Source of the DNA: Candidatus Saccharimonadota bacterium
GTDB lineage: Archaea; Micrarchaeota; Micrarchaeia; Micrarchaeales; Micrarchaeaceae
Assembly (NCBI GenBank): GCA_963698035.1
Contig: OY969114.1
Coordinates: 90,001-122,000 of the forward strand
Length of the DNA stretch: 32,000 bases
Direction: 5' to 3'
This document shows positions 161 through 30,567 of this stretch, piece after piece; within the stretch, counting starts at the first letter, position 1; each line of letters starts with the position of its first letter. The translations under genes and the position numbers were made by a program. The notes beneath the pieces are model-generated. The model saw only the letters and a program-made list of their open reading frames with translations. It was not told the DNA's origin and searched no databases.

Positions 161-1721
161 CTAACCCCTGTTTTTATAGTTTGCCCATTCCCTCTCCCCA
201 AGCTTTTCGGTATAATGCACCAGTTCCTCGAGATCCGCCTTGGTTGTAAGAGGGTTGCCAAGCATAAGCCTCTGCATCTGGTATACTTTGTCCTTTCCGG
301 CACCAAGGACATTCTTGAAGTCGTTCAGGTTGAATGTATGGACATAGAATTCCCCTTCCATGAACATCTTCTTCTGAATTCTGAGGTTCAACTCGCTTAT
401 CTTTCTTGCAGTCCCTATGGATTTGGTTGCATCGAGCTCCTCCTTGAGCTCCTTTGGCACGTACAAGTATACGGCGCTGTTTATCGCGATGTTGTTCATA
501 AGGTAAAAGTTCTGGGTCTTTTCTATCACCGCCGCGAAATATTTCACCATCTCGTGCCTTCTCTCTATGAGCCTTCCGATCTTTTCCTTCCCCAGGTTCT
601 TGATCAGGAACCAGAGCTTGAGGCTTTCAAAAGCCCTGCTGCCCAGAAACGGCGTTATCTGGCCGAACGAGAGCCTTTCCTTTGTTATCAAATCGCTCAC
701 TCCGGACACCGACCTGATTGTTTCCGGATCCTTTACTAAAACGTAACTGAGCGGGTACGGTACGAAAAGAACCTTGTGAGGATCTATCGTAACCGAATCG
801 GCGAGGTTTATGCCCTTTACTTTTGCCTTCAGCTTGTCGCTGAAACACAGCGATGCCCCGTGGCAGGCGTCTATGTGGAACCAGATCTTGTATCTCTTCG
901 CTATTTTTGAGAGGCTAACGAAATCATCTATTGCCATGGTCCTTGAGTCTCCAGCGTAGGCTATGAGAGCGAATGGATGCCCGTCCACTTTTGCCTTTTC
1001 CAATTTTTCTACGAGATCCTTTTGGTCTATTGTGAAGTTCTCGGTCGTCTTCACCTCTATAATGTTCTCATCCCCAAGACCGAGCCATGCCATCGCAGCC
1101 TTTGAGGTATAGTGGCCTATGCCTTCCGGGATGAACATCTTGAGCGTTTTTTTGAGGCGTAGAGGCCCTTTGCCATGGTGTTCGGATAAGCGACCCCCTC
1201 GCCAGGAGCAACGCTATGGTATTCGCCAGCGTGCCTCCAGGCACGCTCATACCCCCAACCTGCAGTACTTCTGCGGGGTTTTTTATGATGTCGTAGCCTA
1301 TAAGCTCCCTGATCCAGTTTATCACCGCTATCTCCACATAGGTCGCGGTCGGCGAGGTGTGGATAGAGTTGAGCGTGTTTTGGTTCAGCAGGCCATAGGC
1401 GATGTACCCTGTGACCGCAGCCACAGAGTTTCCGCTGTCCGGAAATGCAAGAAAGTGAGGACTGGAGAAGTTCACCGACCCGTCCACTATCTTTGCATTG
1501 AATTCCTCTATCACCTTGTGCATGTCCTTGGGCTTTTTGGGTATCGGTTCGATCAGTTCCCTGAATATGGTATCCTGATCCTTGTAGCACAGGACCGATC
1601 TTCCGAGGTCCTTGCCGAGCTTGAAGTCCAGACCGACCTTGATCGCCTCCGAAAATATCTTTTCAACTTTCTTGCGATTTTTCTGGTTCACAAAGTCGTT
1701 TTCAAACTCATCCCCTTCCAT
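161..1721 (-). pseudogene. Group II PLP-dependent amino-acid decarboxylase (Glu/Tyr/Asp decarboxylase family), interrupted by two frameshifts
   Basis: Minus ORFs 1068..1721 and 161..1138 plus a short bridging frame make one protein. The N-part reads ...SPHFLAFPDSGNS...GGTLANTIALLLARG. The C-part reads ...GHYTSKAAMAWLGLG...WFHIDACHGASL...SVTIDPHKVLF, which carries the PLP-lysine DPHK motif. Three different frames are joined at a G5 run (plus C-run 1194-1198) and an A7 run (plus T-run 1147-1153). Confidence 0.8.
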
Positions 1722-4345: not shown

Positions 4346-6499
4346 CTAAGATTGTTTGAGTATATCCCTGACGGGTAACTTCAAGCATTTGTACTTATTA
4401 TCTGTTAATCTTTCTATTTCTTCTTTTGTTTTGCTTCCGTTTGTGACAAATATCAGTTCTGTGTTCTGACCGCTTGCCTTTTCTATGCACCTCTCTATCT
4501 CGCTCCTTATCGCATTGGTCTGGATCTCGTATGCGGTTACGTTGTAGTAGTCCCATAACCCCTTTATCTTTGAATCCGTCTTGAGTTCCCCGACATCGAA
4601 GCTCTCCCTTTCCTTCAGCACGAACGGAAAATTACCATTATCCTGAATCATTTCAATGGTATTTTTCATGAGCCCAGAGTGTTCTTCACTTCCTTTGTTC
4701 ACTCCTTGCCTTTGTATTATCCTGTATGAATCCAATAACTCCTGAGCCTTCTTGGTCAGCTTGCCATCCATGAAATATCCCGAATCTGTTGCCCTTCGCA
4801 GCAATGATGGCTTGCTTGGAGTGCCATAAATTGTTGTCTTGCTTGTTATCCAACCCCTATTCTTCAGCATTTTGTGCGCTTCGGTAAGGTTGTTTGTCCT
4901 GCTGAACGCCACGAGGAACCTGTACACGCTTACACCGGGGATGTCCAGCTGCCTTATCACCGCGTGCATCTCCCTGTCAGGCTGCCTGCTCGGCCCGGAG
5001 TCCCTCGCATTGCCTATGTCCAGCCTCTTTATGCTCTCCCTGAGCCTGTTCTTCTCCTCCCTGCTTATCATGTCGATCTCTATGTACGCGGGATGCGGCT
5101 GTCCGTTCTGTATCGCGTTCTGGTCGAAGAGCATTGCGCCCCCGACGGGCATCCTGTGCAGTATCGCCTTCTCTATCTCGGTGAAGACCAGCATCTTGTG
5201 TATGCTCTCGAGCGCCCTTGGCTCGTGGTACGAGAGCACGAACTTGACGGAGGTGTTTGCCACTATGGGCGCGGGCAGGTCCTCCAGCAACTGCGTTGAA
5301 ATCAGCAGCCCGAACCCGTATTTCCGGCCCTCCCTCACCACCTTCGTTATATTGGTCTCCTTGTTGTAGTAGTTGACTATCGCCTGATAGGCGTCGTCCA
5401 GCGCTATGTAGAGCTTTATCCTGTCCTGGACCCTGAACTCCTCTATTATCCTCTGCATTATCGTGTGGGTGACCAGCTTCTTCTCTATGTCCGTAAGGCC
5501 CTCCATGTCGATTATGTTGCACGTCTTGTCGTAGTTGTCCCAGAACTCCTGCGCCTCGTATCCGAAGATCTCGAAAGCCTGCCTCAGCTTGTTGGTTGTG
5601 TACCTCAGCTGCAGCTTCATCTCCTTGTAGCGCTCCCTGTCGGCCTCTTCCAATAGGCGATCATGAAGGGTCCTTATGGTCGGTTCCTTTCCTTCGTTGT
5701 ACATTTCTGCTAATGTTTCCCTGACCTTCTGGGCCTGGAGGTCCGTCAATGCAAGGGATACCTGAAGGAGCTCTGACGCGATTCCGCACCTCCTCTCTGT
5801 GCTCATTCCCCTCAACGGGAATGGGTTGACCTTCAGGTTCGCGGGCACGCGCCAGATATTGACATCCATAGCGTTGTGCTTGTACGAGCCCGACCAGTCC
5901 ATTATCAGGAATGGTATGCCGAACCTGGTATAGCTCCTTGTGAGGAATGTCAATGTAAGGTTGGTCTTGCCCGAGCCCGACTCCCCTATTATCATCACAT
6001 GCGGATTGGGTTCGCTCTTTGTCTGCAGGTCGTATATGCCCTTCGAGCCGGAAATAGAGAGCTTTGAGGATTTTGTCTGCACCCCGGTGGCCATCGTCCT
6101 GATTGTTGTTTCCGTCCCTGTGGGATGCGGATACTCGTACCCTATCGCGATGCCGTTGTGGCGGTGCATCTTTACGCGGTCGCCGAGCACCGCAAGGTAG
6201 TAGGAGATTATCGCTGTTATGGGGATGTATATCCAGATTGGTATGATGGAATAAAGGACGATGTAGAGCAGCTGCGTAAGCAGGAAGAACATGAGGAAGT
6301 CGCCCAGCGCGGCCACCCTCTTGTGCCCCCTCTTGACGTACTTGAAGAAGTCGTTTATAGCGTGGCTCTCGCTCTTGTGCTGGTACTTGAAGCCGAAGGC
6401 AAGGAAGACCAGAACGAGGATGTATATTGCGTACAGCATTACGGCAGAGACCGCGCCGAATGTGGTTGCAAGAAGGACCAACGAACCCCCCCCATACAC
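4346..6499 (-). CDS. Membrane-anchored HerA/FtsK-superfamily P-loop ATPase with a C-terminal wHTH-like and PD-(D/E)xK-like extension
   Basis: - Motifs: Walker A GESGSGKT (nt 5963-5986), Walker B-like LYIALDDA, and a GRKYGFGLLISTQ box typical of HerA/DUF87-type ATPases.
- N-terminus: 3-4 hydrophobic helices.
- Start: GTG 6499 (VYGGGSLVLL...) is preferred, because the ORF-track extension to 6589 runs through TATA-like boxes (minus-strand tttatatatttta).
- Alternative start: the ATGs at 6510 and 6495 are one frame off across a G8 run (plus C-run 6486-6493). Confidence 0.75.
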   Translation of the reverse strand: MYGGGSLVLLATTFGAVSAVMLYAIYILVLVFLAFGFKYQHKSESHAINDFFKYVKRGHKRVAALGDFLMFFLLTQLLYIVLYSIIPIWIYIPITAIISYYLAVLGDRVKMHRHNGIAIGYEYPHPTGTETTIRTMATGVQTKSSKLSISGSKGIYDLQTKSEPNPHVMIIGESGSGKTNLTLTFLTRSYTRFGIPFLIMDWSGSYKHNAMDVNIWRVPANLKVNPFPLRGMSTERRCGIASELLQVSLALTDLQAQKVRETLAEMYNEGKEPTIRTLHDRLLEEADRERYKEMKLQLRYTTNKLRQAFEIFGYEAQEFWDNYDKTCNIIDMEGLTDIEKKLVTHTIMQRIIEEFRVQDRIKLYIALDDAYQAIVNYYNKETNITKVVREGRKYGFGLLISTQLLEDLPAPIVANTSVKFVLSYHEPRALESIHKMLVFTEIEKAILHRMPVGGAMLFDQNAIQNGQPHPAYIEIDMISREEKNRLRESIKRLDIGNARDSGPSRQPDREMHAVIRQLDIPGVSVYRFLVAFSRTNNLTEAHKMLKNRGWITSKTTIYGTPSKPSLLRRATDSGYFMDGKLTKKAQELLDSYRIIQRQGVNKGSEEHSGLMKNTIEMIQDNGNFPFVLKERESFDVGELKTDSKIKGLWDYYNVTAYEIQTNAIRSEIERCIEKASGQNTELIFVTNGSKTKEEIERLTDNKYKCLKLPVRDILKQS

Positions 6500-6636
6500 T
6501 TGATATTCATATTTGGATAATAAAATATATAAATGTTTACTTTGGTATAAATTAGGGGAAGAATGCCGGACAAACCGACCAGGGAGCAAAGAAGTAAGCG
6601 GAGGTTATGTTTATGCCATAGGCAGCAAGATAGAGT

Positions 6637-6779: not shown

Positions 6780-6941
6780 ATGGAGAGAGTACTTCTAACT
6801 GGAGCCACTGGATTTATAGGAAAGGAGCTTGCAGCCAAGCTGGCAGAGAAGAATTTGGAGGTGCACTCCCTAGAGCTGCACTCTCTAGAGCGCTATGTGC
6901 TTGCAGTAGAGGTTTGCGGACTGGAGGCTGGGAGGATATAG
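6780..6941 (+). pseudogene. N-terminal remnant (~40 codons) of an NAD-dependent epimerase/dehydratase (SDR) gene
   Basis: MERVLLTGATGFIGKELAAKLAEKNLEVHSLE(LHSLE)RYV aligns with the N-terminus of the intact paralog at 21423..22385 (MERVLITGSTGFIGKALLNKLGGGKYEIHTLERYV). Similarity stops at ~6899, where the convergent gene 6893..7927 ends. There is a 15-nt tandem duplication (6862-6876 and 6877-6891, one mismatch). Confidence 0.7.
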
Positions 6942-7927
6942 GCTTTTAGATAGGCCATAGAGCTTATTATGTCACTGGTTTTGTTGACAATGAGATAAGC
7001 TCCTAGAACGGGCACCCGTACCACTTTATATGAGATTCCTCTGAACTCCTCTGTAACATGGAACATGAAATTGTTATTCATCTGTGTTAAAACGCCGAAT
7101 TCTGCGCAGCTGCCCAAGGTACTAAAATTCAGGGCGCCCCTAGTTCCAAGAGCCGTAACACCACCGGCATTCATTTTTATGTAATTAAGATACTCCTGAA
7201 ACGGCGCAACTCCGAGATTACTTATGCCAGAATAATTACGCATATAGAACTCAATCGCAGGTTGGTTTGCAGAGAAGGCGACCTTGAATGAGGTATTGCT
7301 ACCGGCGGAGCAGACGGGAACTAGCGCATAGTTTATCGGCACAACAATTCCCGCGCTCAGGTTGTAGCTCCTGGTCAAGATCGAATTATAGATTGGGATT
7401 GTCTGATTGACATACGTTTGATGATAATACGCTAAACTGACCGGCCAGAAAGGTCCGATTATAAGTATAAGCGCTATGATAAATAGTAGATATGAGAGAC
7501 CAGCACTGTTGCGCCAAATGAATTTCTTAATTTTTTTTACTTTTGATTCAAGAGAATAATTCTGGATTATTGTGTAGATGATGAAAGCGATAAGGCAATC
7601 TACCAACAGATAGTATCCAAGTGCATTGAGATTGTTCCCTATTTTCTGCATGCGTAGATAGAAAATCGTCCAAGTGGGGGGAGGAAACGAGAGGTATAAT
7701 GTGCTCCCAACTATAACAAACCCAAGCATCACTAAGATTACTTGCTTGATGTACTTTGGATATATAGACAGAATGGGGACTATTAGGACGAGGGTCAGGA
7801 GATAGGAATACAATGGCTTAGTGTTCAATATTAAAAAGTCCAAAATCAAGAAGACGGCAAGCAGAGAGTAGAGAAGCACATTCGCCCCCTTGATATAGGC
7901 GGTCAATCTTAATTTGATTTGCTTCAT
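6893..7927 (-). CDS. Integral membrane protein of unknown function: ~5 N-terminal TM helices plus a ~180-aa extracytoplasmic domain
   Basis: The 344-aa ORF starts 1 nt after the stop of the upstream 776-aa gene (TAA-G-ATG). The N-terminal half is hydrophobic. The C-terminal half contains 6 N-X-S/T sequons by my count. I recognise no family motif. Confidence 0.6.
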   Translation of the reverse strand: MKQIKLRLTAYIKGANVLLYSLLAVFLILDFLILNTKPLYSYLLTLVLIVPILSIYPKYIKQVILVMLGFVIVGSTLYLSFPPPTWTIFYLRMQKIGNNLNALGYYLLVDCLIAFIIYTIIQNYSLESKVKKIKKFIWRNSAGLSYLLFIIALILIIGPFWPVSLAYYHQTYVNQTIPIYNSILTRSYNLSAGIVVPINYALVPVCSAGSNTSFKVAFSANQPAIEFYMRNYSGISNLGVAPFQEYLNYIKMNAGGVTALGTRGALNFSTLGSCAEFGVLTQMNNNFMFHVTEEFRGISYKVVRVPVLGAYLIVNKTSDIISSMAYLKAYILPASSPQTSTAST

Positions 7928-7928
7928 C

Positions 7929-10259
7929 TTATCGCCTTTTTCTCCTTACAAGCCCAAAGCACCCAATACAGATGGTGAATCCGAGCGCACCGAGGCTTAT
8001 TGCCCATGTAATCCATGCGAGCGTCTGCGGTGCATAGTACAGCGTCATGGTGTAATTGCCGGTTTTGGTTATATACCATGCATTAGCAAAACCGTTGACC
8101 TGGATGTGTTCACTCTGATTTACCATACTTCCATTGCTGTAAAAGGCATTCCATCCGGGATCGTATGTCTCCCTGAATACAAGATAGAAGGGGCTTGTGG
8201 CATTAGAGACTTTTACATCAACCCTCGTGGGAGAACTGTAATCAAATGAAATGTCTGCCTGCTTAAAATTTGATATCCATGAAATGGGAATCTTTCCGCT
8301 GCTATTATAAAGACCGATGCTCTGCGTGGTGTAAATTGCAGTATTGCTTGTGTCAAACGTGCTATTTCCCATAGCATCAAAGACCGCACCGCTAGAGGAG
8401 TTGCCTATGCTCTTAATATTGGACGAATAGACAAGGGGAGTATAATTAATAACTTCGAAGATGGCAGAAGTATTATAGGATGTTACGTATTTGATGCTTT
8501 TTGACCTATTGAGATTATAATATATCATGCTCTCGTTCCAGACAGGTGCCAGGGGCGAGGAACTGCTCATGTGCAACGTGTCACCCTGTATTATGATGTA
8601 TTTTATCCCAAACACGCTGAATATATTAGATATGGAATAATTAACACTGGATGTAGAAATTTTCCCGTTAAGATAATTATAATAGCTTTGTGGGAACCAG
8701 GGGCTAAAACCTTCATCATAAACATCGCCAAGGCCGGTATATACGGGTGATTTAATTAGCGACTGGTATACGTTGGTACCGGTGTACCAATTGCTAACCT
8801 GCCAACTAGTAAGTGGGGATACTTCCGGGAGAGTTCCGACAGAAAAAGTACCATTCTGCGAGTTGATGTAGTTAGATATATTATAAACATATGCGGGAAC
8901 CGTGCTTAGACCGGGGGTGTTAGCGGCATTGGTTATGCCTAGCGACAATTCCAACGCTTGCGCACCGACTGGAGTGTGTAGTGTGTTTTGTTCAATCGGT
9001 ATATAATCGTAATTGTAAAGGTATACCACTATGAAAATTAATATAGCAACAATAAATAGGATCAGGTACACATTGTGCTTGTTATTAATTATTCCTGATA
9101 TGTTGGCTACAGCATATCCTATCAACAAAGAGGAAAGAAAAGTGAGTATGGGATAGCTGTGTTCGACCAGAAATATCCATGTATATGGCACGTCACTATA
9201 CAGGGTTGTTATAAATCCTGAGAAAGGGGTACTGAGCGTGCTTAGGTTCAGAAAGAGAAAATATGAAATAACAGCTCCTAGAACAAACACTTTGCTTGGG
9301 TCTTTGGGATCAAATTTAAGCAGCGACCCAAATACAGCTACAAAAAATAAGAGCATTAGAAAAATGGTAATAATTGAGTATGGTGTCCCAAAAAGAGTAA
9401 ACATGCTGAATGCATAAAGTATAGCTCCGTTGCTGTACTGCGTGTAGACAATTTTATTGCCTGTTACTGTTTGGTTGTAGATGCTCTTTTGATTTTGGAT
9501 TAGAAGATAGTTGGTTACAGGCGTTGGGAGGAATATCGCCAAAGCTAATAATATCGAAATTAGGGTGGTGATGGCCGCTCTATAGAATCTGATTTTCCTG
9601 CCATACACCACAATAACAAAAATGGAGAAGAATAGGATTAGGGATAGATTTTGAATGAAGTATTCCGCGCCTCCGATGCTCAATGTAATGGTGATTGCTA
9701 GGGTCAGGAGCGAAAATGTCAGGAGAGTCTGACGATTTTTAAAAGAGATTGGATCTGGACTTAATATTACCCTATATAAAAGCAAGAAGACCCATGGTAA
9801 AAATACTGCCGCATCTAACTGGCCACCAAAAGGCTCTGTGAAGGTTATTGTAAAAAATATTGCAGATACGTACGCACCAAAAAATGCAAATTTTTTATTA
9901 AATTTTTTAGAAAGTTCCAAAACGAGTAGAAATATGCCTATACCCCCTATTGTCAGGAAAAGCCATGTATCGAATACCTCAAAGGCCTTCATACTAAGAA
10001 TTAATTGTATTGGAGTAAAAACTATCCCGATAAGCAGACCGATTGATCCAGAGAATGCTGTTATAATTCCTGAATAGTTTAATGGCTGCCAGATGAACAA
10101 CGAATTATATAGGTAGGATAGGCCGAATAGTGATAAACTTTGGTCGCCTTGCAGCGGGTGATAGATACTTGCATAAATAAGTGTGTTGATCAGCACCATT
10201 AGCGAAATTATGATGCATGCCCCTCTTTTTGACAGAATGTTGTTTGTAATGCGACCCAT
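7929..10259 (-). CDS. Large polytopic membrane protein, GT-C-like (YfhO/AglB-like topology); candidate glycan transferase or polymerase
   Basis: The 776-aa protein has a dozen or so hydrophobic segments across the first ~440 aa. A ~330-aa Asn/Ser/Thr/Tyr-rich domain follows, with 14 N-X-S/T sequons by my count. It ends in a single TM helix (LAWITWAISLGALGFTICIGCFGLV) and an RRKRR tail. No WWDYG motif is present, so it is not a canonical AglB. Confidence 0.55.
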   Translation of the reverse strand: MGRITNNILSKRGACIIISLMVLINTLIYASIYHPLQGDQSLSLFGLSYLYNSLFIWQPLNYSGIITAFSGSIGLLIGIVFTPIQLILSMKAFEVFDTWLFLTIGGIGIFLLVLELSKKFNKKFAFFGAYVSAIFFTITFTEPFGGQLDAAVFLPWVFLLLYRVILSPDPISFKNRQTLLTFSLLTLAITITLSIGGAEYFIQNLSLILFFSIFVIVVYGRKIRFYRAAITTLISILLALAIFLPTPVTNYLLIQNQKSIYNQTVTGNKIVYTQYSNGAILYAFSMFTLFGTPYSIITIFLMLLFFVAVFGSLLKFDPKDPSKVFVLGAVISYFLFLNLSTLSTPFSGFITTLYSDVPYTWIFLVEHSYPILTFLSSLLIGYAVANISGIINNKHNVYLILFIVAILIFIVVYLYNYDYIPIEQNTLHTPVGAQALELSLGITNAANTPGLSTVPAYVYNISNYINSQNGTFSVGTLPEVSPLTSWQVSNWYTGTNVYQSLIKSPVYTGLGDVYDEGFSPWFPQSYYNYLNGKISTSSVNYSISNIFSVFGIKYIIIQGDTLHMSSSSPLAPVWNESMIYYNLNRSKSIKYVTSYNTSAIFEVINYTPLVYSSNIKSIGNSSSGAVFDAMGNSTFDTSNTAIYTTQSIGLYNSSGKIPISWISNFKQADISFDYSSPTRVDVKVSNATSPFYLVFRETYDPGWNAFYSNGSMVNQSEHIQVNGFANAWYITKTGNYTMTLYYAPQTLAWITWAISLGALGFTICIGCFGLVRRKRR

Positions 10260-10353
10260 AAATACCCCGTTGTCATCTTACTCTTATAAGACCTCTAGAA
10301 TAATGGCATTGGTTATCTTGTTTAATAAGAATGGCGTAAAACCCACACCGATA

Positions 10354-11319
10354 TTATATTCTTTCTGCATAGAGATATCCGCAATATAATATTTCCTGAG
10401 GGGGTCTACAAACGAAGGGCATCGTATGCGTGACCCTGAACCCGCATTCCTCAAGCCATTTTGTTAGCACTTTGTAACCATAATGGTATTCCATCACAAT
10501 CTGGCTGAACTTTCTCAGCGTCTTTCTTGAACTATTTAAAATTGATGGATATTCCCATCCCTCGCAATCCATCTTCAATACTGCATCGTTTATATTGTAA
10601 GTTTTTAATAAAGTATCAAAGCAAATTAGAGGGACTGTCTTCCTTTTTTTGGAGGGTTTTAATTCTGAAAATTCTGAAGTGTCGAAGGAAATGTTTTTGT
10701 CGGTCGGGCTTAGTTCTATTGAACCGTCTCTTGCATCTATGCCTGCATTTATTGCTATCACCTTATTGCTTATTGGCTTGCTTGCCTTTACATTCTTTAG
10801 CAACCTGTTGAAATGATATGGGTATGGCTCTAACGCATACACTCTTTTCGCCCCCTCCAATGCATAGTATAATGCCGTATCCCCTATAAATGCACCTATG
10901 TCTACAACAGTTTTATCTTTAACATTCAATCGATGATAAGCACCTAAAATTATATCATTTATAAGCGAAACTATTACTTCTTGTTCCCTGTCTGTGGAAT
11001 AATTGAATACTGCACTTCCAACATTTATTGTGCGCTTATTGATTTTTATATGTAAATGCGGATGTCTTTTGGCACTCTCCCGAAGGACAAGGAGAGGAAA
11101 GACTTTAGCATATTCATCCTTATCTTTTATTGCTACTGTTCTGCCGTCTTTCAATTTTAAATTGATGCCACTTACGAACCCCAATTTGAAGAATACAAGA
11201 GCCCACCAATTATTGAAAATATTTGCATAATTCAATAAGTCAGAAAATAATACTGCGGGATAACCCAATCTCGACTTCGCCTGTATCTTTTCTGTTATTG
11301 TTATTGGTGGATGCCACAT
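10354..11319 (-). CDS. FkbM-family SAM-dependent methyltransferase with a ~110-aa N-terminal extension
   Basis: VVDIGAFIGDTALYYALEGAKRVYALEP (SAM-binding DIGAxxG) and ...LKMDCEGWEY..., as in the FkbM (Methyltransf_21-type) domain. Confidence 0.8.
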   Translation of the reverse strand: MWHPPITITEKIQAKSRLGYPAVLFSDLLNYANIFNNWWALVFFKLGFVSGINLKLKDGRTVAIKDKDEYAKVFPLLVLRESAKRHPHLHIKINKRTINVGSAVFNYSTDREQEVIVSLINDIILGAYHRLNVKDKTVVDIGAFIGDTALYYALEGAKRVYALEPYPYHFNRLLKNVKASKPISNKVIAINAGIDARDGSIELSPTDKNISFDTSEFSELKPSKKRKTVPLICFDTLLKTYNINDAVLKMDCEGWEYPSILNSSRKTLRKFSQIVMEYHYGYKVLTKWLEECGFRVTHTMPFVCRPPQEILYCGYLYAERI

Positions 11320-11368
11320 ACTACCGCTTGCGTTATTTGTTTTAGTAAAATATAATCCTCTAAGGCTC

Positions 11369-12262
11369 TTATTTTTTTGAGCTGAACTTCTCGCTTAAGT
11401 ATTTTATAGCTGCCGTAGTATCTGTAAACTTATATTCGCCAATCGTCTCAAAGAGCCTTCTGGTGTCCGCCTGCGTATGATATTGATAGGTTGAGAGGGG
11501 ATTCGGAACAAATTTCTTGCCATCTTTTTGTATTAGGTCTGCTATCTCATTGAAACTTATCGCTTTTCCTGTCCCGATGTTGTACACGGGATACGTTCCT
11601 TTCTCAAGCAGCATAAGAGAAATATTTACTGCATCGTCTATATATATGTAATCCCTGCTCTGCTTTCCATCTCCGTATACCAAGAGTGGCTTGCCCTCCT
11701 CGCGCTGGCGCAGGAACTGCCCCACGACGCTTGCGTGTGGACCTTTCTCATCATCGCCAAGACCGAAGACGTTGAAGTATCGCACCCCAACTATATCCAT
11801 CTTGTATATATCCAGATATGAATGCGCTATCATCTCATTTATCATCTTTGACTTAGCATAGTGGTTACGCTGCTTCTTGATATCGATGATGGCGTTCTCG
11901 GAGAAATCATCGAGATACATAGACGCGCTAGATGCATAGAAGAATCTTTTTACTCCGTGCTTCTGTGCTGCGTCAATAACATTTATGAAACCATTTACAT
12001 TTGTGCTGTAGCACCTTGCCGGGTCTTCTATAAAGGCTACTGGAGAGGTTATGGCAGCAAGATGCATAACATAATCTACACCCGTCATTGCGTTCTTTAC
12101 GGTCTCTGGATCTCTGATATCGCCCTCGATGTGCTTTGCACCCTCTACAACCGGATCTTCTAGGTCTAGCCCAACGACATTGTAACCCGACTCGATGGCC
12201 TTCCTTACCATGTGCCTGCCGATGAACCCTGAAGATCCTGTTATAAGTAGTCTTCCCTGCAT
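11369..12262 (-). CDS. NAD-dependent nucleotide-sugar epimerase (SDR, GalE/WbpP-like)
   Basis: Rossmann motif ITGSSGFIGRH, a YASSASMY serine region, and catalytic YAKSK (YxxxK). Confidence 0.85.
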   Translation of the reverse strand: MQGRLLITGSSGFIGRHMVRKAIESGYNVVGLDLEDPVVEGAKHIEGDIRDPETVKNAMTGVDYVMHLAAITSPVAFIEDPARCYSTNVNGFINVIDAAQKHGVKRFFYASSASMYLDDFSENAIIDIKKQRNHYAKSKMINEMIAHSYLDIYKMDIVGVRYFNVFGLGDDEKGPHASVVGQFLRQREEGKPLLVYGDGKQSRDYIYIDDAVNISLMLLEKGTYPVYNIGTGKAISFNEIADLIQKDGKKFVPNPLSTYQYHTQADTRRLFETIGEYKFTDTTAAIKYLSEKFSSKK

Positions 12263-12324
12263 TAACTCGACCTAGTCTCGCTTTTACTCTGATTGTTTGG
12301 ATATTTATTTATTACGTTTCAGGA

Positions 12325-12392
12325 TAGCTTTGCTAATAAAGCCAATTAATTAGCAGACTGAATTAGCAGTTTCATTACTTTATTAGCAGACT
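12325..12392. promoter_or_regulatory. Intergenic ATTAGCA-box array (locus 2), homologous to 6637-6705
   Basis: TGCTAAT (12331-12337) plus three ATTAGCAG boxes (12349-12356, 12362-12369, 12382-12389) and an AATTAATT palindrome. The array lies in a 165-nt spacer, ~62 nt upstream of the SDR epimerase start (12262, minus). Confidence 0.45.
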
Positions 12393-12427
12393 ATTCTGTC
12401 ATGCTATCAAGAAGGTCTTGATCTGTG

Positions 12428-13129
12428 TCATTTTGCCTGCCTCCAAGCTCCCATTATTCCGCATCTGTTCTTGTCGGTAGGACCTATATCCTTTATCTTG
12501 AATCCCTTGCCTTGCAACACCTTCGCCACTTCATCGTGGCATCCCCAATGATACTCCAGTATTATCGCATAAACCTTGCTTAAGTCTGCATCTGGGAATA
12601 TAATTTTCTCGTCTCCCTCTACGTCGCACTTTATGGCTATATGTCCGTTTATCCCTTTGATTATGTGGTCTAGGGTATGCTGGCTTATTTTCCATCTGCC
12701 CTTTCCATTTACCTTGCTTAATGCCCAGCCCTTTCCTGCCCAGCCTCCCCATTCGTCGCTGTATATTACGCCATCAGTATTGGTTATCGCTGCGTTGTTG
12801 AATTGTATCTTTTCCTTGTATCTGTTTGTTTCAAGCATCCGCTTTGCCAAGTCATAGGTCTTTGGTACTGGCTCGAAGGATATGACCTTTTTTACATTTG
12901 GAGAACTTGCGAAATATATTGATGCATCGCCCATGCTTGCGCCTATGTCCAGCAGTGTTGTGTTCGGCTTGAGCCTTTTGAGAAGCCACCTGTATTGCTC
13001 TTTTATGAATGTCTCTTCCATCTGCCCTGATTTCACGTCCATTGCCCAATATTTCTGCCTTGTCTTTGCTGGGCTTCTTATGAATTCCATTGCCCTGCGC
13101 AAGCCCCATTCTGCGTTTGATTCGGTCAT
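12428..13129 (-). CDS. FkbM-family methyltransferase (tandem paralog 2)
   Basis: LLDIGASMGDASIYFAS...VISFEP...IKCDVEGDEKIIFPDADLSKVYAIILEYHWG. A strong SD-like GGAGGG sits 7 nt upstream of the ATG. Confidence 0.8.
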   Translation of the reverse strand: MTESNAEWGLRRAMEFIRSPAKTRQKYWAMDVKSGQMEETFIKEQYRWLLKRLKPNTTLLDIGASMGDASIYFASSPNVKKVISFEPVPKTYDLAKRMLETNRYKEKIQFNNAAITNTDGVIYSDEWGGWAGKGWALSKVNGKGRWKISQHTLDHIIKGINGHIAIKCDVEGDEKIIFPDADLSKVYAIILEYHWGCHDEVAKVLQGKGFKIKDIGPTDKNRCGIMGAWRQAK

Positions 13130-13130
13130 G

Positions 13131-13781
13131 TTAATCCCTCCATGCTCCCAGCATTCCGCTGCCCTCTTTGTTGAGAGATGTCAATTCTACTGTCTTGAAG
13201 CCCTTGCCTGCGAAAACCCGTTTCATCTCATCCCTGCAATACCAATGATCTTCCAGAATTATCGCATAGACCTTTGAGAGGTCTGCATCTGGGAATATAA
13301 TTTTCTCGTCTCCTTCGCAGTCACACTTTATAGCTATAGGCTTATGTATGTCTTTTGTTATCTGATTTAGGGTATATAATTGTATTTTTCTTCCGCCGTG
13401 CTGCTCCTTCATAGTGCTGAACTGCCTGCTATCCAATACTTCTTTGCTGCCAATCTTGAAGCCCTCTTTGTCGGATACCGCTGCATTGTTGAATTCTATC
13501 TTGCCCTTTAACGGGCACTTCTGAAGCAGCTCCATCGCCCCGTTATATAGACCTGGTGTTGGTTCGAACGAGATAACTTTGCTCACGTTTGGGAACTGCG
13601 CGAAATAGAGTGCCGTATCGCCTATGCTCCCCCCTATATCTATTACTACCGTATCTGGCCTAAGTCTTTCTGCTAACCAATGATAGGGTTGTTCTACGAA
13701 GGTCTCGCTTAAATGCTCCGCCTTGCTGAAGTGCAGCTTGTACCTTGCGGGCAGATGCTCTTGTATCCAGTGCTTCATCAT
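13131..13781 (-). CDS. FkbM-family methyltransferase (tandem paralog 1)
   Basis: VIDIGGSIGDTALYFAQ...VISFEP...IKCDCEGDEKIIFPDADLSKVYAIILEDHW. The stop is 1 nt from the next gene's ATG. Confidence 0.8.
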   Translation of the reverse strand: MMKHWIQEHLPARYKLHFSKAEHLSETFVEQPYHWLAERLRPDTVVIDIGGSIGDTALYFAQFPNVSKVISFEPTPGLYNGAMELLQKCPLKGKIEFNNAAVSDKEGFKIGSKEVLDSRQFSTMKEQHGGRKIQLYTLNQITKDIHKPIAIKCDCEGDEKIIFPDADLSKVYAIILEDHWYCRDEMKRVFAGKGFKTVELTSLNKEGSGMLGAWRD

Positions 13782-14997: not shown

Positions 14998-15939
14998 TTA
15001 AGTAGAATTTGATTTATACCATTCTACTGTCTTTCGAAGTCCTTCTTCAAACGTGTATTTGGGCGACCAGCCTAGCTCGTTTCTGATCTTCGTGGGGTCG
15101 ATAGCGTATCTTACATCATGTCCCAATCTGTCCGTAACGTGCTTTATCAGCGTTTCTGGTTTGCCCAAAAGTTCTAGAATCATCTTGATGACATCTATAT
15201 TATGCTTCTCCTGATCCGCACCTACTAAATAAGTTTCACCGGGAACGCCCTTTGTAAGTATGCTTTCCAGAGCTGAGCAATGGTCATCTACATAAATCCA
15301 ATCTCTTACCTGCATGCCGCTTGCATAAACTGGTATATCCTTGTTATTCAGGGCATTTGTTATTGTTTTTGGTATGAGCTTCTCGGTGTGTTGCCTTAGT
15401 CCGAAATTGTTGCTGCAGTTCGATATCGTTACTTTCATTTTGTATGTATTGTAATAGGCCCTTACCAAGTGATCCGCTGCAGCCTTTGTAGCTGCGTATG
15501 GATTTCTCGGGGCGTATGGGGATTTCTCGCTGAATCTCTTTTTTGACCTCAATGACAAGGAACCGTATACCTCATCGGTAGAAACCTGATGGAATCGCTT
15601 CTCGTATTTCTTAGCTGCATCAAGAAGGGTATGCACGCCAACAATGTTTGAATGAATGAAAGCCTTCGATGAAAGTATTGAGTTGTCAACATGGCTCTCC
15701 GCCGCGAAGTTGATTATGGCATCCACATCTTTAACAATATTATCTACAGTGCTTTCATCTGCGATGTCGCCCTTAACAAAACTGTAGTTGAATTTTTCTG
15801 TACCTGTCAGATTCGACAGGTTTGCAGCGTATGTCAACTTGTCGATGTTTACTATTTCATCCCTCGGATGATTACTAAACCAGTAGTGTATGAAATTAGA
15901 GCCAATAAAACCAGCGCCGCCGGTAACAAGCAGTTTCAT
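14998..15939 (-). CDS. rmlB: dTDP-glucose 4,6-dehydratase
   Basis: MKLLVTGGAGFIGSNF, STDEVYG and YAATKAAADHL (YxxxK). The ORF-track N-terminal extension (15940-16038) is non-homologous and was rejected. Confidence 0.9.
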   Translation of the reverse strand: MKLLVTGGAGFIGSNFIHYWFSNHPRDEIVNIDKLTYAANLSNLTGTEKFNYSFVKGDIADESTVDNIVKDVDAIINFAAESHVDNSILSSKAFIHSNIVGVHTLLDAAKKYEKRFHQVSTDEVYGSLSLRSKKRFSEKSPYAPRNPYAATKAAADHLVRAYYNTYKMKVTISNCSNNFGLRQHTEKLIPKTITNALNNKDIPVYASGMQVRDWIYVDDHCSALESILTKGVPGETYLVGADQEKHNIDVIKMILELLGKPETLIKHVTDRLGHDVRYAIDPTKIRNELGWSPKYTFEEGLRKTVEWYKSNST

Positions 15940-16039
15940 TCTATCACACATGTTTATGTTGTCTATTTCGCAGAAATTAAGCAGTATGCAGTCTTTTGCC
16001 GTTGCAAACCTTGCAGATATAATCAGCCATGCAATCACC

Positions 16040-16930
16040 TTATCGATTATCGCCTATCTGTTTTTTTAATAATAGCAACCCTTCCTTTATTGTCAGGGTC
16101 TTGAGGTTCGCCGCCCTTTCCGCTTTGTCAGTAACCACGTTTACGCTCCCCGGTCTTGGCGCTATCTGGTTCAGCTCCGGGCTGGTCACCGGAGTTATAA
16201 GACTGGGATCAAGATCGAAATGCTTTGCTATTTCTTTTGCAAAATCGTATCTGCTCACGCAGTCCTTTCCAGTTATGTGGAAGATTCCCGTCTCGTCCTT
16301 TCCATAGAGCCTGAAAAGAAATTCGGATAAATTATCCGTAAAGGTTGGATTGCTCTTCTGGTCTGTCACTATGCGCACTGTTTCGTTGTTTTGTAGCTTG
16401 GCTATCAGCCAGAGAGCAAAACTCACCTTGCCGCTGCCGCCAACCCCGTAAAGCACAGATGTCCTCGCAACTATGTAGTTCATGTCAAGGGCAGAGAGCA
16501 TGTACTCTACAACAAGCTTTGTTTTGGCGTAGTAATTCAGCGGATGGGGTTTGTCCTTTTCCGTATATTTAAGCTTCGCGCCGTCAAATACGTGATCGGT
16601 AGATATGAATATCAATTTGCTGCCAAGCTGTTTGCATGCTTCGGCAACGTGCCTCGTGCCCTCAACGTTTACCTGCCATGCCTCATCAGTATGGGTCTCG
16701 CAATAGTCTAGGTTTGTGAGGGAGTGTGTGTCTATCACGCAATCTGGCTTTACCTTTTCCATTAATTTAAAAACAGCCTTTCTGTCTGTTGCATCCAGCT
16801 TTAGGATGTTGCTTCCTCCCCTTGGCTCGTGGGTATTATAGGTTCCCCACATTTCGTAATCGTTCTTGCCAAGCTCCGTGAGCCTTGATCCAAGAAGACC
16901 GCTGCAGCCTATTACCAATAACCTTTCCAT
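16040..16930 (-). CDS. rmlD: dTDP-4-dehydrorhamnose reductase
   Basis: MERLLVIGCSGLLGSRL...; length ~297 aa; it sits with rmlA/B/C. A TATA-like tttaaata lies ~24 nt upstream of ATG 16930, which suggests a leaderless transcript. The ORF-track extension to 17059 overlaps rmlA and was rejected. Confidence 0.85.
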   Translation of the reverse strand: MERLLVIGCSGLLGSRLTELGKNDYEMWGTYNTHEPRGGSNILKLDATDRKAVFKLMEKVKPDCVIDTHSLTNLDYCETHTDEAWQVNVEGTRHVAEACKQLGSKLIFISTDHVFDGAKLKYTEKDKPHPLNYYAKTKLVVEYMLSALDMNYIVARTSVLYGVGGSGKVSFALWLIAKLQNNETVRIVTDQKSNPTFTDNLSEFLFRLYGKDETGIFHITGKDCVSRYDFAKEIAKHFDLDPSLITPVTSPELNQIAPRPGSVNVVTDKAERAANLKTLTIKEGLLLLKKQIGDNR

Positions 16931-16991
16931 GATTATATGATTAGATGGTAAGATATTTAAATGTTTATGCACTAACGATAATGCGAATAAT
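16931..16991. promoter_or_regulatory. Bidirectional promoter between rmlD-rmlB (minus) and rmlA-rmlC (plus)
   Basis: A 61-nt A/T-rich spacer with atatttaaatg (16953-16963) is readable as a TATA box on both strands, 24-35 nt from both ATGs. No SD-like sequence is present, consistent with leaderless mRNAs. Confidence 0.45.
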
Positions 16992-17744
16992 ATGAAAGGA
17001 GTTATACTAGCTGGAGGGAGTGGCTCTAGGCTTAGGCCGCTTACACAGGTTACAAACAAGCACTTACTGGCTATATATGACAGGCCAATGGTCCACTATC
17101 CATTGGAGCTTCTAAAGGGCTTTGGGTTAACCAATATTATACTGATAACAGGAAAGGAGTTTGGAGGCGATTTTACAAACCTTTTCGGAGATGGGAGCGC
17201 TTACGGCGTGGATTTCACATACAAAGTACAGGAGGACGCGTTCGGAATAGCCCACGCGCTTGGTATATGCAGAAATATTGTAAAGGATGACTCGGTGCTT
17301 GTGGTCCTGGGCGATAACATATTCAATTTTGAGAAAAACGAGATGGCAGAGCTGAGAAAAACCGTAAAGGGGTTTGCAGCGCACCCCAGAGGGGCTAGGA
17401 TATTTCTCAAGGAGGTGCCCGATCCCGAGCGTTTTGGAGTTGCAGAGCTTGATGGCAATGGTAGGGTCAGGAGCATAGAGGAAAAACCAAAGAAACCAAA
17501 ATCAAACTATGCTGTCACAGGCCTGTACATGTACGATAAAACAGTATTCAACAAAATAACTGCGCTGAAGCCATCGCACAGGGGCGAGCTCGAGATCACA
17601 GATGTAAACAACGCATACATAAGAGAGGGCAAGATGAAGTACAACATAATTAGGGGAGACTGGACAGATGCGGGAACATTCGATTCTCTGTTCAGAGCTG
17701 GGCAGATTGCAAAGAAAATTTCGGATGAAAAAAAGGGGAGATGA
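16992..17744 (+). CDS. rmlA: Glucose-1-phosphate thymidylyltransferase
   Basis: MKGVILAGGSGSRLRPLT...NKHLLAIYDRPMVHYPL...LGDNIF: nucleotidyltransferase signature. Confidence 0.9.
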   Translation: MKGVILAGGSGSRLRPLTQVTNKHLLAIYDRPMVHYPLELLKGFGLTNIILITGKEFGGDFTNLFGDGSAYGVDFTYKVQEDAFGIAHALGICRNIVKDDSVLVVLGDNIFNFEKNEMAELRKTVKGFAAHPRGARIFLKEVPDPERFGVAELDGNGRVRSIEEKPKKPKSNYAVTGLYMYDKTVFNKITALKPSHRGELEITDVNNAYIREGKMKYNIIRGDWTDAGTFDSLFRAGQIAKKISDEKKGR

Positions 17745-18297
17745 TCACTTGTTCAAATTTACAAAGCTCGGCATTCCGGGCATGATATTGATTGAAGCTC
17801 AGAAATTTGGAGATAATAGAGGTTCACTGTCTGAATCGTACAAGGCGCCCGAGTTTCTGGAGAACGGCATTCCGGCCTTTAATCAGGATATTATTTCTAT
17901 ATCAAAGAAGAATGTAATACGGGGCTTGCACTATCAGCTGGAGCCCATGGAGCAGGGAAAGCTTGTCAGGGTCCTTAAGGGGCGCATATTCGATGTTGGC
18001 GTAGACATTAGAAGGGGTTCACCGCATTTTGGCAAGTGGCACGGTGAGGAACTCTCAGAAGAGAACAGCAGGATTCTTTGGATACCAAAGGGATTTGCAC
18101 ATGGCTTTTCAGCCCTGGAAGATGATTCAGTCGTATTCTACAAAACAACAAAGATTTATTCAAAAGAGCACGAGCGCGGAATCGCTTGGAACGATTCAGA
18201 CATCAACATAGCCTGGCCGGTAAAAGAACCGGTGATATCCGAGAGGGATGCAAAGCTTCCGGGGCTTAAGGAAGCGGAAATGAATTTTGACTTTTGA
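17725..18297 (+). CDS. rmlC: dTDP-4-dehydrorhamnose 3,5-epimerase
   Basis: FGDNRGSLSESY...RGLHYQ...GKLVRVLKGRIFDVGVDIR...WIPKGFAHGF. The start is either ATG 17725 (20-nt overlap with rmlA) or in-frame TTG 17749. The ORF-track start 17668 is unlikely. Confidence 0.85.
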   Translation: MKKRGDDHLFKFTKLGIPGMILIEAQKFGDNRGSLSESYKAPEFLENGIPAFNQDIISISKKNVIRGLHYQLEPMEQGKLVRVLKGRIFDVGVDIRRGSPHFGKWHGEELSEENSRILWIPKGFAHGFSALEDDSVVFYKTTKIYSKEHERGIAWNDSDINIAWPVKEPVISERDAKLPGLKEAEMNFDF

Positions 18298-19220: not shown

Positions 19221-20272
19221 CTACCATTTGATTTTTTTATAGTAACTAAACGCTGCACCTTTATTCAGCGTCTTGTCAAGATTGTAATCTACTACGGCCT
19301 TGATGCCTGCTGGCAGATTCCACAGAGATCCATACTTTTTAACGCCGAATATATGTCTTTCTCCTTTTGGTATTGTTCTTGTAAGAAAGGTACTAAAAAA
19401 TACTACCGGAACTTCTGCAAGAGACTTTCTGATCCTTTGCTTTGCGGTAAGCGAATCACGGTGCTTGTCAAAGAAATAGAGATAGTTTCTAATGCTTTTG
19501 TATGTCATTACCTTCTGAGCCGAAATAGACATGCTCCATAGCTTTGCATGGGTGGAACTGCCAACGTGTATTATAGATGCTTTATCTGTTACCAGCACCT
19601 TATATCCGGCATCTTTTGCCCTAAGAGAATAGTCCAGATCTTCAAACCCGACAACGAAATTCTCATCCAGCATCCCTATTTTTTTAATAACTTCACGTTT
19701 TATTAGGAACGCAGGACCGGGGAATACATCCACGTCGATGCATCCGTGGAATCTCTTTTCCTTTCCGGGTTTTATTGGAACATTTTTACCATTTAGAAAA
19801 ACTCCGCCAATAGACTGCAATGTACCATCTGGGTTTAATATTCTGCAGGAGACGATCCCAGCCTGATTTTCAGCATCTGCTACTTTCACAATCTCTGTCA
19901 ACCAATTAGTGTTCTTAACAAAAGCATCGTTGTTGTAAAGCATTATGTATTTTGGGTTGTATTTTTTAATCGCATATTTGATGCCGATATTGCAAATCTT
20001 AGAGAAGTTGTATATGTTTTTCTTGATATCGATAGTTTCTACTCCGCGCTTTTTAAGAAAATCCTTTGAAGAGTCGGTCGATCCATCATCAACAACCACT
20101 ACTTTGTAATCTTTGTACGTAGTTCTCTTCAACGAGTCCAAACACCGTTCTATTATTCCGTGCCCTTTAAACTTTATATCGACTCCGTTGTAGTTTAGAA
20201 TTAAAATTACGACTTTTGCTTTCCTATTTGGAGCTATTAAACCACTTTTTTCTTTAATATCGAATACTGCAT
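19221..20272 (-). CDS. GT2-family glycosyltransferase with an apparent frameshift near the 5' end
   Basis: The body encodes ...AKVVILILNYNGVD...IERCLDSLKRTTYKDYKVVVVDDGSTD...FEDLDYSLR (GT2 DxD/ED motifs). The conserved N-terminal strand lies upstream of the ORF-track TTG (20141), in a frame with no canonical start. ATG 20272 lies 1 nt after the upstream stop (TAAT-ATG) and is one frame off across an A6 run (plus T-run 20246-20251). Confidence 0.8.
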
Positions 20273-29544: not shown

Positions 29545-30567
29545 TCATCTACTTAAAGCGCTGATGAGTTCCTGTCTCACCTGCTTTGGCGCCCACTTTT
29601 CCTTTATCGCCTTTACCGCTATGTTGTATCCTATGCTGTATCCCCGGTTCTGGTTCATTGTCATAAGTCGTGCCATAAATTCGTCTATCTCTGTTCTGCG
29701 TTTCAGGATATCGAGATCAACATTATACATCCTTGACACGTAATAAGAAAATACCACGCTCTCTGCAGGCAGTACAGGCGGGAGCGATATTAATGACGTG
29801 CCTCTGCTGTCAGACCTTTGTAGCGGGTGGTATACTGTAGCTCTGTCAAACCAAACAGCGGTGAACTTCCTGGCCAGGACTTCGAGAGTTGCGGCTGACT
29901 CGTTCCTCCCTCCCATTTTCGTATATCCAGGAAGTTTGAACCCGCGCAGCGCGTCCCTCTTCCACGACATGTTCACTCCGTGCTGCTTGAAGGTCTTTAT
30001 CATGTTGTATCTCTTTCCTGTATCGACCAGCATTCCAGACCTTCCTATGTACATCCCATAGTCTTTGAATCTTCCATCTATCGGCGTGTCTATTATTGTG
30101 TGCTTGTTCATCCTCCACTTCTGCGCATTGAGGAGCCTTGTGAAGAATGGTATGGGAGCCCCTTCTGGCAGTGTGCTTTCATCTACGATGCCGGTCGCCA
30201 ACCCGACTCCTTTGTGCTTCTTGTGCAGTCCTACGTGGTCTTTGATCCAGTCTTTTGACACATATGCGTCATCATCAGTATGCATGACAATGTCCCCATC
30301 TGCTTTCCTGTATATGGTGTTCAGCGCCTCTTCGAAGAGGCCATTATCTTGCTTTATGAGCCTCACGTCCAGACCGCTGTATTCCTTGGCTCTGCCAAGG
30401 GTTTCGTTGCACCCGCTCCATGGTTTATAGACAAGCATTATACTGAAATTCTTGTAGGATTGCGACTGCAAGCTATACAGGAGCTTGAATATTGTATTCC
30501 TTGTCTTGTATGTAGGTATGGCAACGGTGACGTGCAAATTATCACTTATTCTTGACGATTTTCCCAT
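29545..30567 (-). CDS. GT2-family glycosyltransferase
   Basis: VTVAIPTYKTRNTIFKLLYSLQSQSYKNFSIMLVYKP and ...IVMHTDDDAYVSKDWI (DxD region). Its 5' end overlaps the upstream amidohydrolase gene by 26 nt. Confidence 0.8.
   Translation of the reverse strand: MGKSSRISDNLHVTVAIPTYKTRNTIFKLLYSLQSQSYKNFSIMLVYKPWSGCNETLGRAKEYSGLDVRLIKQDNGLFEEALNTIYRKADGDIVMHTDDDAYVSKDWIKDHVGLHKKHKGVGLATGIVDESTLPEGAPIPFFTRLLNAQKWRMNKHTIIDTPIDGRFKDYGMYIGRSGMLVDTGKRYNMIKTFKQHGVNMSWKRDALRGFKLPGYTKMGGRNESAATLEVLARKFTAVWFDRATVYHPLQRSDSRGTSLISLPPVLPAESVVFSYYVSRMYNVDLDILKRRTEIDEFMARLMTMNQNRGYSIGYNIAVKAIKEKWAPKQVRQELISALSR

Follow-up and report, generated by a model that had tools for sequence, protein, structure and literature searches.

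An AftD-type GT-C protein of Micrarchaeota and its linkage to an undescribed membrane-protein family

Organization of the gene pair

We analysed a 32,000-nucleotide stretch of contig OY969114.1 (assembly GCA_963698035.1, positions 90,001 to 122,000; hereafter the window); it comes from an archaeon of the DPANN phylum Micrarchaeota. A glycan-biosynthesis island occupies 10354 to 31717, and at its downstream end, on the same strand, the window carries two adjoining genes for membrane proteins. The first encodes a 776-amino acid (aa) protein with the predicted fold of the C-type glycosyltransferases (GT-C) and is called the GT-C here; the second encodes a 344-aa protein, called the partner. An earlier note made from the sequence alone (the original prediction) had described these genes as a translationally coupled unit. 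Both open reading frames (ORFs) were found exactly as it stated, and the TAA-G-ATG junction reads on the minus strand as claimed (Table 1). Homologues of the partner align from residue 1 of the 344-aa form; one gene caller starts the gene 16 codons further in, which gives 328 aa. The TTATAA in the gap 5′ of the GT-C gene is a possible promoter of the two-gene unit.

Kyte-Doolittle hydropathy analysis of the GT-C revealed 11 N-terminal transmembrane (TM) segments and one C-terminal TM segment (residues 747-772) before a VRRKRR end. The protein contains 19 N-X-S/T sequons, 14 of them within residues 421-745, a density of 43 per 1000 aa; the figure for 20 neighbouring proteins is 6.5 per 1000 aa. 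Shuffling with the composition preserved gave a mean of 6.8 sequons (P = 0.0014 for the 14 observed), and the enrichment thus exceeds what composition alone gives. In the partner there are five clear TM segments and a weak sixth hydropathy peak, with six of its seven sequons lying within residues 166-344 (shuffle mean 2.5, P = 0.02). These counts agree with the architectures originally described, namely about a dozen TM segments, a sequon-rich domain, a terminal TM helix and an RRKRR tail in the larger protein, and about five TM helices plus a six-sequon domain in the smaller one. Judged from the sequences, such sequon-dense ectodomains support an outside orientation, and that only.

Assignment of the 776-aa protein to the AftD family

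A word-indexed search of a 5.8-billion-cluster database returned three relatives of the GT-C. One of these, P0004, passes the gathering score of Pfam GT-C_AftD (31.3 bits, cut-off 26) and aligns with the GT-C over two collinear blocks (E = 2e-5 and 1e-17). Conservation in the GT-C is highest over the last ~145 residues (632-776), a stretch that includes the C-terminal TM anchor; it matches P0004 at E = 1e-17 and has relatives in many archaea and bacteria. Four distant proteins were gained when the alignment was used as query in a further word-indexed search, and an exhaustive profile search with hidden Markov models (HMMs) found 7,349 representatives at E ≤ 1e-3, many of them aligned end to end. 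Of 62 sampled full-length relatives, 17 match Pfam GT-C_AftD (PF11847), with a best E of 4.6e-27. The GT-C itself is below the PF11847 gathering threshold, and the best value among 26 Micrarchaeota homologues was E = 0.057, reached by one member alone.

Scanning of the GTDB representative genomes with the family profile showed that the closest relative (74% identity) lies in a metagenome-assembled genome (MAG) of Micrarchaeota. About 25 more full-length relatives with 28-35% identity were found in Micrarchaeota, including the cultured A_DKE and ARM-1, and proteins of Bathyarchaeia, methanogens, Chloroflexota and others matched in the C-terminal part only. The whole TM domain is kept at 57-74% identity among close relatives. 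Members of the Micrarchaeota clade carry the database label "hypothetical protein".

Three alignments were used for comparison with known structures and families: a Micrarchaeota-only alignment of 26 sequences (A2), a mixed 62-sequence profile with AftD-positive members (A3), and an alignment of eight Pfam-positive proteins (A4). Against the PDB, profile A3 matched the cryo-EM structures of mycobacterial AftD (6w98/6wbx) at E = 2.7e-11, over profile positions 18-573 and AftD residues 20-569. Because A3 includes AftD-positive members, the AftD link was checked separately with the Micrarchaeota-only alignment, and hhalign of A2 against A4 gave a probability of 100% and E = 8.6e-68 over 705 aligned columns.

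The AlphaFold2 (AF2) model of the GT-C, built on the 62-sequence alignment, reached a pLDDT of 86.3 and a pTM of 0.89; an earlier run on four sequences (pLDDT 35.7) was discarded. In a Foldseek search of the PDB with this model, AftD (6w98/6wby/6wbx) came on top (E = 4e-11, probability 1.00, TM-score 0.49-0.51). The 12 best matches were all GT-C enzymes, with AftD followed by STT3, AglB, DPY19, AftA and ArnT; TM-scores to STT3 and AglB (0.34-0.39, E = 1e-4 to 4e-4) were below those to AftD. The modelled structure therefore has a GT-C fold, and profile-profile homology likewise places the protein in that fold, as had been proposed; a protein without similarity to any GT-C fold, the outcome named beforehand as contrary to the proposal, is not what the Foldseek matches indicate. 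The suggested family, on the other hand, has to be replaced. The 776-aa protein is of the AftD type and represents a highly divergent Micrarchaeota-specific branch of PF11847, its nearest family being neither AglB, YfhO nor ArnT. Its best sequence and structure matches are to AftD, and neither Pfam STT3 nor YfhO (PF09586) was matched; none of the 62 relatives matched YfhO at E ≤ 0.01. A terminal TM helix is common to YfhO and the GT-C, yet it is not specific to YfhO.

Compared with mycobacterial AftD (6W98, 6WBX, 6WBY), the GT-C has in common the fold, an Asp in the first extracytoplasmic loop (loop 1) and a beta-sandwich after the GT-C super-domain, and the profile alignment spans the TM domain and the first soluble domain of AftD. 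The window protein is much shorter (776 aa as against 1,413 residues in the deposited 6W98 chain), with an identity of ~10%, and its model has one beta-sandwich region and a single C-terminal TM helix. AftD has been described with three carbohydrate-binding modules (CBMs), 16 TM helices and a bound acyl carrier protein (bioRxiv 10.1101/2019.12.22.885152); in the predicted structure, the 776-aa protein has neither the three CBMs nor the C-terminal multi-TM bundle of AftD proper. With an archaeal host, a dolichyl rather than a decaprenyl phosphate sugar donor is expected, and arabinan is not.

Closer in size are GT-C_AftD proteins of 750-810 aa (P0071, P0100 and P0113; Bathyarchaeia, methanogens, Chloroflexota and others), which resemble the window protein in length and architecture (TM domain, soluble domain, beta-sandwich, terminal TM) and are homologous to it from end to end. 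Motifs common to both are GGD in loop 1, the PFG region, IPxY, WYxG and a C-terminal NGFANAWY. These proteins differ from it in that identity is 17-21%, that they pass PF11847 and that they have no neighbour of the partner family. A literature search found no characterised example among these 750-810-aa proteins, no characterised archaeal member of the AftD family and no work on archaeal DUF3367 enzymes, and in the papers on A_DKE and ARM-1 no mention of the two-gene module was found.

Five residues, K39, D41, E251, K361 and D474, are essential in AftD of M. abscessus (Tan et al., bioRxiv 10.1101/2019.12.22.885152). We compared these positions by HMM alignment to AftD and by column counts, the loop alignments being uncertain at ~10% identity. 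In the first loop, where the original prediction had proposed to look for an acidic DxD/ExD motif, an acidic residue is present as D39, whose conservation across the 26 Micrarchaeota homologues is 90% or higher. Its column holds D in 33 of 43 Micrarchaeota-type and 17 of 19 AftD-type representatives, and the profile alignment places it ~4 residues from the K39/D41 segment of AftD. The E251 region of AftD aligned poorly with the GT-C family profile.

The 344-aa partner family

No similarity of the partner was found in Pfam, NCBIfam or the PDB; these searches included ten long forms against Pfam, 15 members against NCBIfam and a profile search of the PDB. An hhalign comparison of the partner family with the GT-C family stayed at noise level. 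The 5.8-billion-cluster database holds two relatives, both directly downstream of a GT-C homologue; in a third locus, L003, the partner gene is cut off by the contig end after 35 codons. An iterative HMM search over the ORFs of all fetched loci identified partner-family proteins of 335-599 aa adjoining the GT-C in 15 further Micrarchaeota loci. Some members are long forms, in which a domain of ~130 aa is inserted and two more TM helices are present; the family ranges from 5 to 7 TM helices. By these searches the partner belongs to an undescribed family without detectable relatives outside the phylum.

The alignment of the family (A5) showed an invariant N99 and a near-invariant G104-Y105-Y106 in a TM helix. 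The outer end of TM5 carries a P-x-W-P motif, in which P159 is near-invariant and P162 invariant, and in the ectodomain the cysteines C206 and C274 are both invariant. A topology with the N-terminus inside and the C-terminus outside is indicated by the basic N-terminus and a K-rich loop at residues 125-140.

In a metagenome scan, the short-form partner alignment found no relatives and the long-form alignment found one locus, L086. On this 4.2-kb contig a long-form partner relative lies beside thioredoxin-like and TnpB-like (IS200/IS605) genes (L086:455-3945), and the contig has no GT-C.

Association of the two genes

The partner adjoins the GT-C in ~17 of ~30 Micrarchaeota loci. It is mostly on the strand of the GT-C, with convergent or divergent arrangements in three loci. 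In 12 other same-strand pairs the junctions are as tight as in the window or overlapping (-41 to +54 nt); the junction of -169 nt in L012 probably reflects an over-extended start call. The distance matrices of the two families correlate (Mantel r = 0.71, P = 2e-4); with the closest pair removed, r is 0.47 and P = 8e-4. This shows co-inheritance, with species phylogeny not controlled for in the Mantel test. Beside AftD-type genes outside Micrarchaeota we found no partner-family neighbour, and a search for an analogous multi-TM neighbour gave no consistent pattern. Co-occurrence of the two genes across genomes, as originally proposed, was thus borne out as far as frequency and tight junctions are concerned, but the linkage is not obligate. 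Partner presence was also considered as the marker of a sub-clade and was rejected, as loci with and without it are interleaved in the neighbour-joining tree, bar one partner-free clade.

Putative function of the pair

The picture that we favour, at a probability of roughly 0.65, is that the AftD-type GT-C adds a sugar from dolichyl-phosphate-sugar onto the glycan of the island outside the cell, with the partner as an accessory subunit. By analogy with characterised GT-C enzymes, the enzyme would take a monosaccharide from a lipid-phosphate donor, in an archaeon a dolichyl-phosphate-sugar. This donor would be presented between the TM domain and the first extracytoplasmic loop, in a groove at which D39 is located. 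On the outer side of the membrane, the monosaccharide would pass to a glycan that the 320-residue ectodomain holds as acceptor; the last TM helix would anchor the C-terminal beta-sandwich of this ectodomain in the membrane. Most probably the acceptor is the glycan made by the products of the island, with its roughly ten GT4/GT2 enzymes, dTDP-rhamnose pathway, aminotransferase and methyltransferases; it may be modified while still lipid-linked after flipping, or once it is on a surface (S-layer) protein. The relationship to AftD favours a glycan-decorating or glycan-elongating enzyme with a lipid-phosphate monosaccharide donor over en-bloc transfer, and the proposed step would be comparable to the addition of O-antigen side chains (PMC11127046) or to arabinan branching by AftD.

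The role of the partner is held with less confidence than that of the GT-C. It would be produced in a fixed ratio to the GT-C from the same transcript and most likely sits beside it in the membrane as an accessory subunit, where its disulfide-stabilised, glycosylated ectodomain may help in the handling of acceptor or donor. Mycobacterial GT-Cs have been argued, in a preprint, to depend generally on membrane partners (bioRxiv 10.64898/2026.07.15.738315). GT-Cs with membrane cofactors and the three-component systems of the Gtr/YfhO type likewise combine a GT-C, a small or medium membrane protein and cytoplasmic GT2s (PMC11127046), and act outside the cell on a pre-made glycan (PMC11127046; bioRxiv 10.64898/2026.07.15.738315). 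To known flippases and cofactors the partner shows no resemblance; it has a large sequon-rich ectodomain with a conserved cysteine pair.

A different reading is that the GT-C is an en-bloc oligosaccharyltransferase, ligase or polymerase which moves a whole lipid-diphosphate-linked glycan to a protein, a lipid or a growing chain. It is the sole GT-C in the window and among the few integral membrane proteins there, no Wzy, ligase or AglB is present within the 32 kb, and STT3 and AglB are among its structural matches. These matches, with the lower TM-scores given above, rank below AftD, an enzyme that adds single sugars from a lipid-monophosphate donor. The likeness to AglB/STT3 extends to the GT-C fold and to a multi-TM domain followed by an extracytoplasmic domain, and the WWDYG-type motif is absent from the window protein. 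The original prediction had already noted this absence, and our motif scan (WW[DN]xG) of the 776-aa protein was negative.

The genomes of relatives bear on the same question. In three loci (L010, L022 and L027), a conserved 15-TM protein of 805-858 aa adjoins the GT-C or the partner (Table 1). The three proteins are clearly homologous to each other, and their profile matches STT3 chains weakly (E = 0.007-0.009); the L022 copy passes Pfam STT3 (42.3 bits, cut-off 24.5), the sole one of the three to do so. Their loop 1 contains FEPDGFFHY, and the WWDYG of canonical AglB is replaced in them by LWPDGS. Micrarchaeota thus have their own divergent AglB, and the AftD-type enzyme is an additional, different GT-C which is sometimes linked to the AglB gene. 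We therefore rejected the suggestion that the 776-aa protein is a non-canonical AglB, since a separate AglB/STT3 homologue adjoins the pair in these three related genomes. That AglB coexists with the GT-C and partner, and is not replaced by them, argues against the 776-aa protein as an oligosaccharyltransferase, and we regard en-bloc transfer as quite unlikely. The adjacency of the AglB gene also gives the GT-C a loose connection to the N-glycosylation pathway.

Several observations weigh against addition of a single sugar by an AftD-type GT-C with its accessory partner. Searches of Pfam, NCBIfam and PDB sequences with the single 776-aa sequence gave no match (Pfam, 0 families at E ≤ 1), and profile A2 did not reach AftD in the PDB, so it is through intermediate sequences and the modelled structure that the protein is tied to AftD. 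As aligned, the loop-1 Asp alone among the residues essential in AftD appears to have a conserved counterpart. The K361 position has none in the Micrarchaeota clade; the Arg just before it, R in 19 of 19 AftD-type and 34 of 43 Micrarchaeota-type representatives, is L364 in the window protein; and D474/E475 of AftD, mostly D in AftD-type proteins, corresponds to N496, a position at which 27 sequences of the clade have N and 15 have D. L364, N496 and the K361 position, which is not conserved, may mean that the enzyme differs in catalysis or in how it binds its donor, or that it is less active. The sub-clade of the window protein appears to have a modified active-site periphery. In at least 10 Micrarchaeota loci with enough flanking DNA, a soluble GT4-like gene replaces the partner, and around the partner relative in L086, over 0.7 kb upstream and 2.1 kb downstream, there is no GT-C. 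Within the window, no GtrA, SMR, MATE or Wzx-like flippase and no membrane-anchored dolichyl-phosphate-sugar synthase was recognised.

The altered residues could mean that the window GT-C is impaired, or repurposed as a glycan-binding, membrane-anchored surface protein, with the partner an unrelated surface glycoprotein that shares its operon. Loss of the near-invariant Arg and the Asn at the D474/E475 position would fit this, as would the sequon-rich ectodomains, which both proteins share with surface glycoproteins, and a partner linkage that is not universal. D39 and most family-wide conserved positions are kept, though, both N and D occur at position 496 across the clade, and the TM domain is well conserved among close relatives; the tight or overlapping junctions and the correlated distance matrices argue for a functional unit. 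We consider this explanation very unlikely.

The lack of a recognised flippase leads to another reading, a Gtr-like three-component system in which the partner fills the vacant place of flippase or donor-delivery component and brings the lipid-linked sugar to the outer leaflet. Its 5-7 TM helices, the invariant N99 inside a TM helix and the conserved G-Y-Y motif are compatible with such a part, and systems of synthase, flippase and GT-C are common (PMC11127046). The known flippases of such systems (GtrA, SMR and MATE types) do not have a large ectodomain with glycosylation and disulfide bonds, and the partner is similar to none of these types; moreover, the loci mentioned above, which would have room for a partner gene next to the GT-C, do not contain one there. 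The probability of a flippase role is accordingly very low in our view.

A broader proposal makes the GT-C and partner an obligate two-subunit machine for extracytoplasmic glycosylation that is specific to Micrarchaeota. The partner would then have a function unlike that of known GT-C cofactors, for example delivery or flipping of the lipid donor or the choice of an S-layer N-glycan as acceptor, and the decoration would aid host recognition or attachment. We regard it as doubtful; if true, surface-glycan decoration would contribute to host recognition or attachment by these episymbionts.

Micrarchaeota are ultra-small, genome-reduced archaea attached to other archaea. Since they live attached to their hosts, the cell surface is the host interface, and one cultured member has a glycosylated S-layer. 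Many of them carry this unannotated GT-C clade, a remote branch of an AftD family with thousands of representatives. Its genes are linked with glycan islands, in some cases also with AglB, which suggests that surface glycosylation in archaea includes a step after flipping. Enzymes of the GT-C type, families like AftD and cofactors of GT-Cs are already known kinds. New is a phylum-specific AftD branch, invisible in databases and altered in its active-site periphery, which is coupled to a membrane-protein family without detectable relatives; the partner is a candidate for a new GT-C cofactor. The cultured strain ARM-1 carries the pair (L026), which makes the idea testable.

Genomic context

The coordinates of the pair, its parts and related features are collected in Table 1.

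Table 1. Features of the gene pair, the dTDP-rhamnose genes of the window and AglB/STT3 homologues in related loci. Positions refer to the window unless a locus is given.
Feature	Position	Strand	Basis or remark
GT-C gene, 776 aa	7929..10259	-	ORF listing; divergent AftD-type member, Micrarchaeota clade
GT-C membrane domain, residues 1-423, ~11 predicted TM helices	8991..10259	-	Hydropathy, AF2 helices, AftD profile alignment
GT-C extracytoplasmic loop 1, residues 31-71	within 8991..10259	-	
GT-C D39 codon, candidate catalytic or metal-binding residue in loop 1	10143..10145	-	Conservation
GT-C extracytoplasmic domain, residues 424-743, alpha/beta part, then beta-sandwich; 14 sequons	8031..8990	-	AF2 secondary structure
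GT-C C-terminal TM anchor, residues 744-776, basic RRKRR tail	7932..8030	-	Hydropathy; model helix 744-775
Stop/start junction TAA-G-ATG	7925..7931	-	Plus strand reads CAT-C-TTA; 1-nt spacer
Partner gene, 344 aa, undescribed Micrarchaeota membrane-protein family	6893..7927	-	ORF listing, iterative HMM
Partner membrane part, residues 1-162, 5 predicted TM helices, N-in/C-out	7442..7927	-	Alignment A5, hydropathy
Partner ectodomain, residues 163-344, 6 sequons, invariant C206 and C274	6896..7441	-	Alignment A5, sequon count
94-nt gap 5′ of GT-C gene, TTATAA ~30 nt before ATG	10260..10353	-	Sequence only
RmlB (dTDP-rhamnose pathway, complete)	14998..16038	-	
RmlD	16040..17059	-	
RmlA	16992..17744	+	
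RmlC	17668..18297	+	
AglB/STT3 homologue	L022:11766-14183	+	
AglB/STT3 homologue	L027:10437-12878	-	
AglB/STT3 homologue	L010:8436-11012	-	

The glycosyltransferases of the island comprise about nine GT4 and two GT2 enzymes, and neither of the two GT2 genes (19221..20141 and 29545..30567) encodes TM segments. Other island genes encode epimerases and dehydratases of the short-chain dehydrogenase/reductase (SDR) type, a DegT-type aminotransferase, a hexapeptide acyltransferase and two FkbM methyltransferases. The cultured Micrarchaeon A_DKE has been reported to be without synthesis of activated sugars; with its complete dTDP-rhamnose set, the organism of the window appears more self-sufficient. 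Similar glycan islands were found in L001 and L002.

Just upstream of the GT-C gene lie FkbM-type methyltransferase genes together with a gene for a conserved protein of ~215 aa that belongs to no family (window 10354-13781, minus strand; L001:5621-7675). AftD-type genes in L002 and L005 are also flanked by methyltransferase genes. These neighbours hint that methylated sugars are part of the pathway. In L005 (7688-17614), three AftD-type GT-C genes (571, 1047 and 689 aa), interleaved with GT4 and methyltransferase genes, look like a paralogous array of AftD-type enzymes.

Directly downstream of the pair, the window encodes a HerA/DUF87 (TraG-like P-loop) ATPase of 747 aa with three N-terminal TM segments (4346-6589, minus strand). 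Besides this ATPase, the GT-C and the partner, the window encodes no integral membrane protein. The G+C content is 0.54 at 5001-6000, in the ATPase region, as against ~0.37-0.43 for the pair.

Past the partner gene, the opposite strand (6780-6892, plus strand) encodes the N-terminal part of an SDR epimerase (MERVLLTGATGFIGKELAAKLAEKNLEVHSLE...); its ORF does not continue, and from its sequence it looks like a gene remnant. At the equivalent position, L001, the locus of the closest relative, has a Y1 transposase and a full-length epimerase of 308 aa. The transposase and the intact epimerase suggest a rearrangement at the end of the island. Near the start of the window (161-1721, minus strand), the overlapping ORFs 1068..1721 and 161..1138 match the N- and C-terminal halves of a pyridoxal-dependent decarboxylase, respectively, which suggests a frameshifted or split gene.

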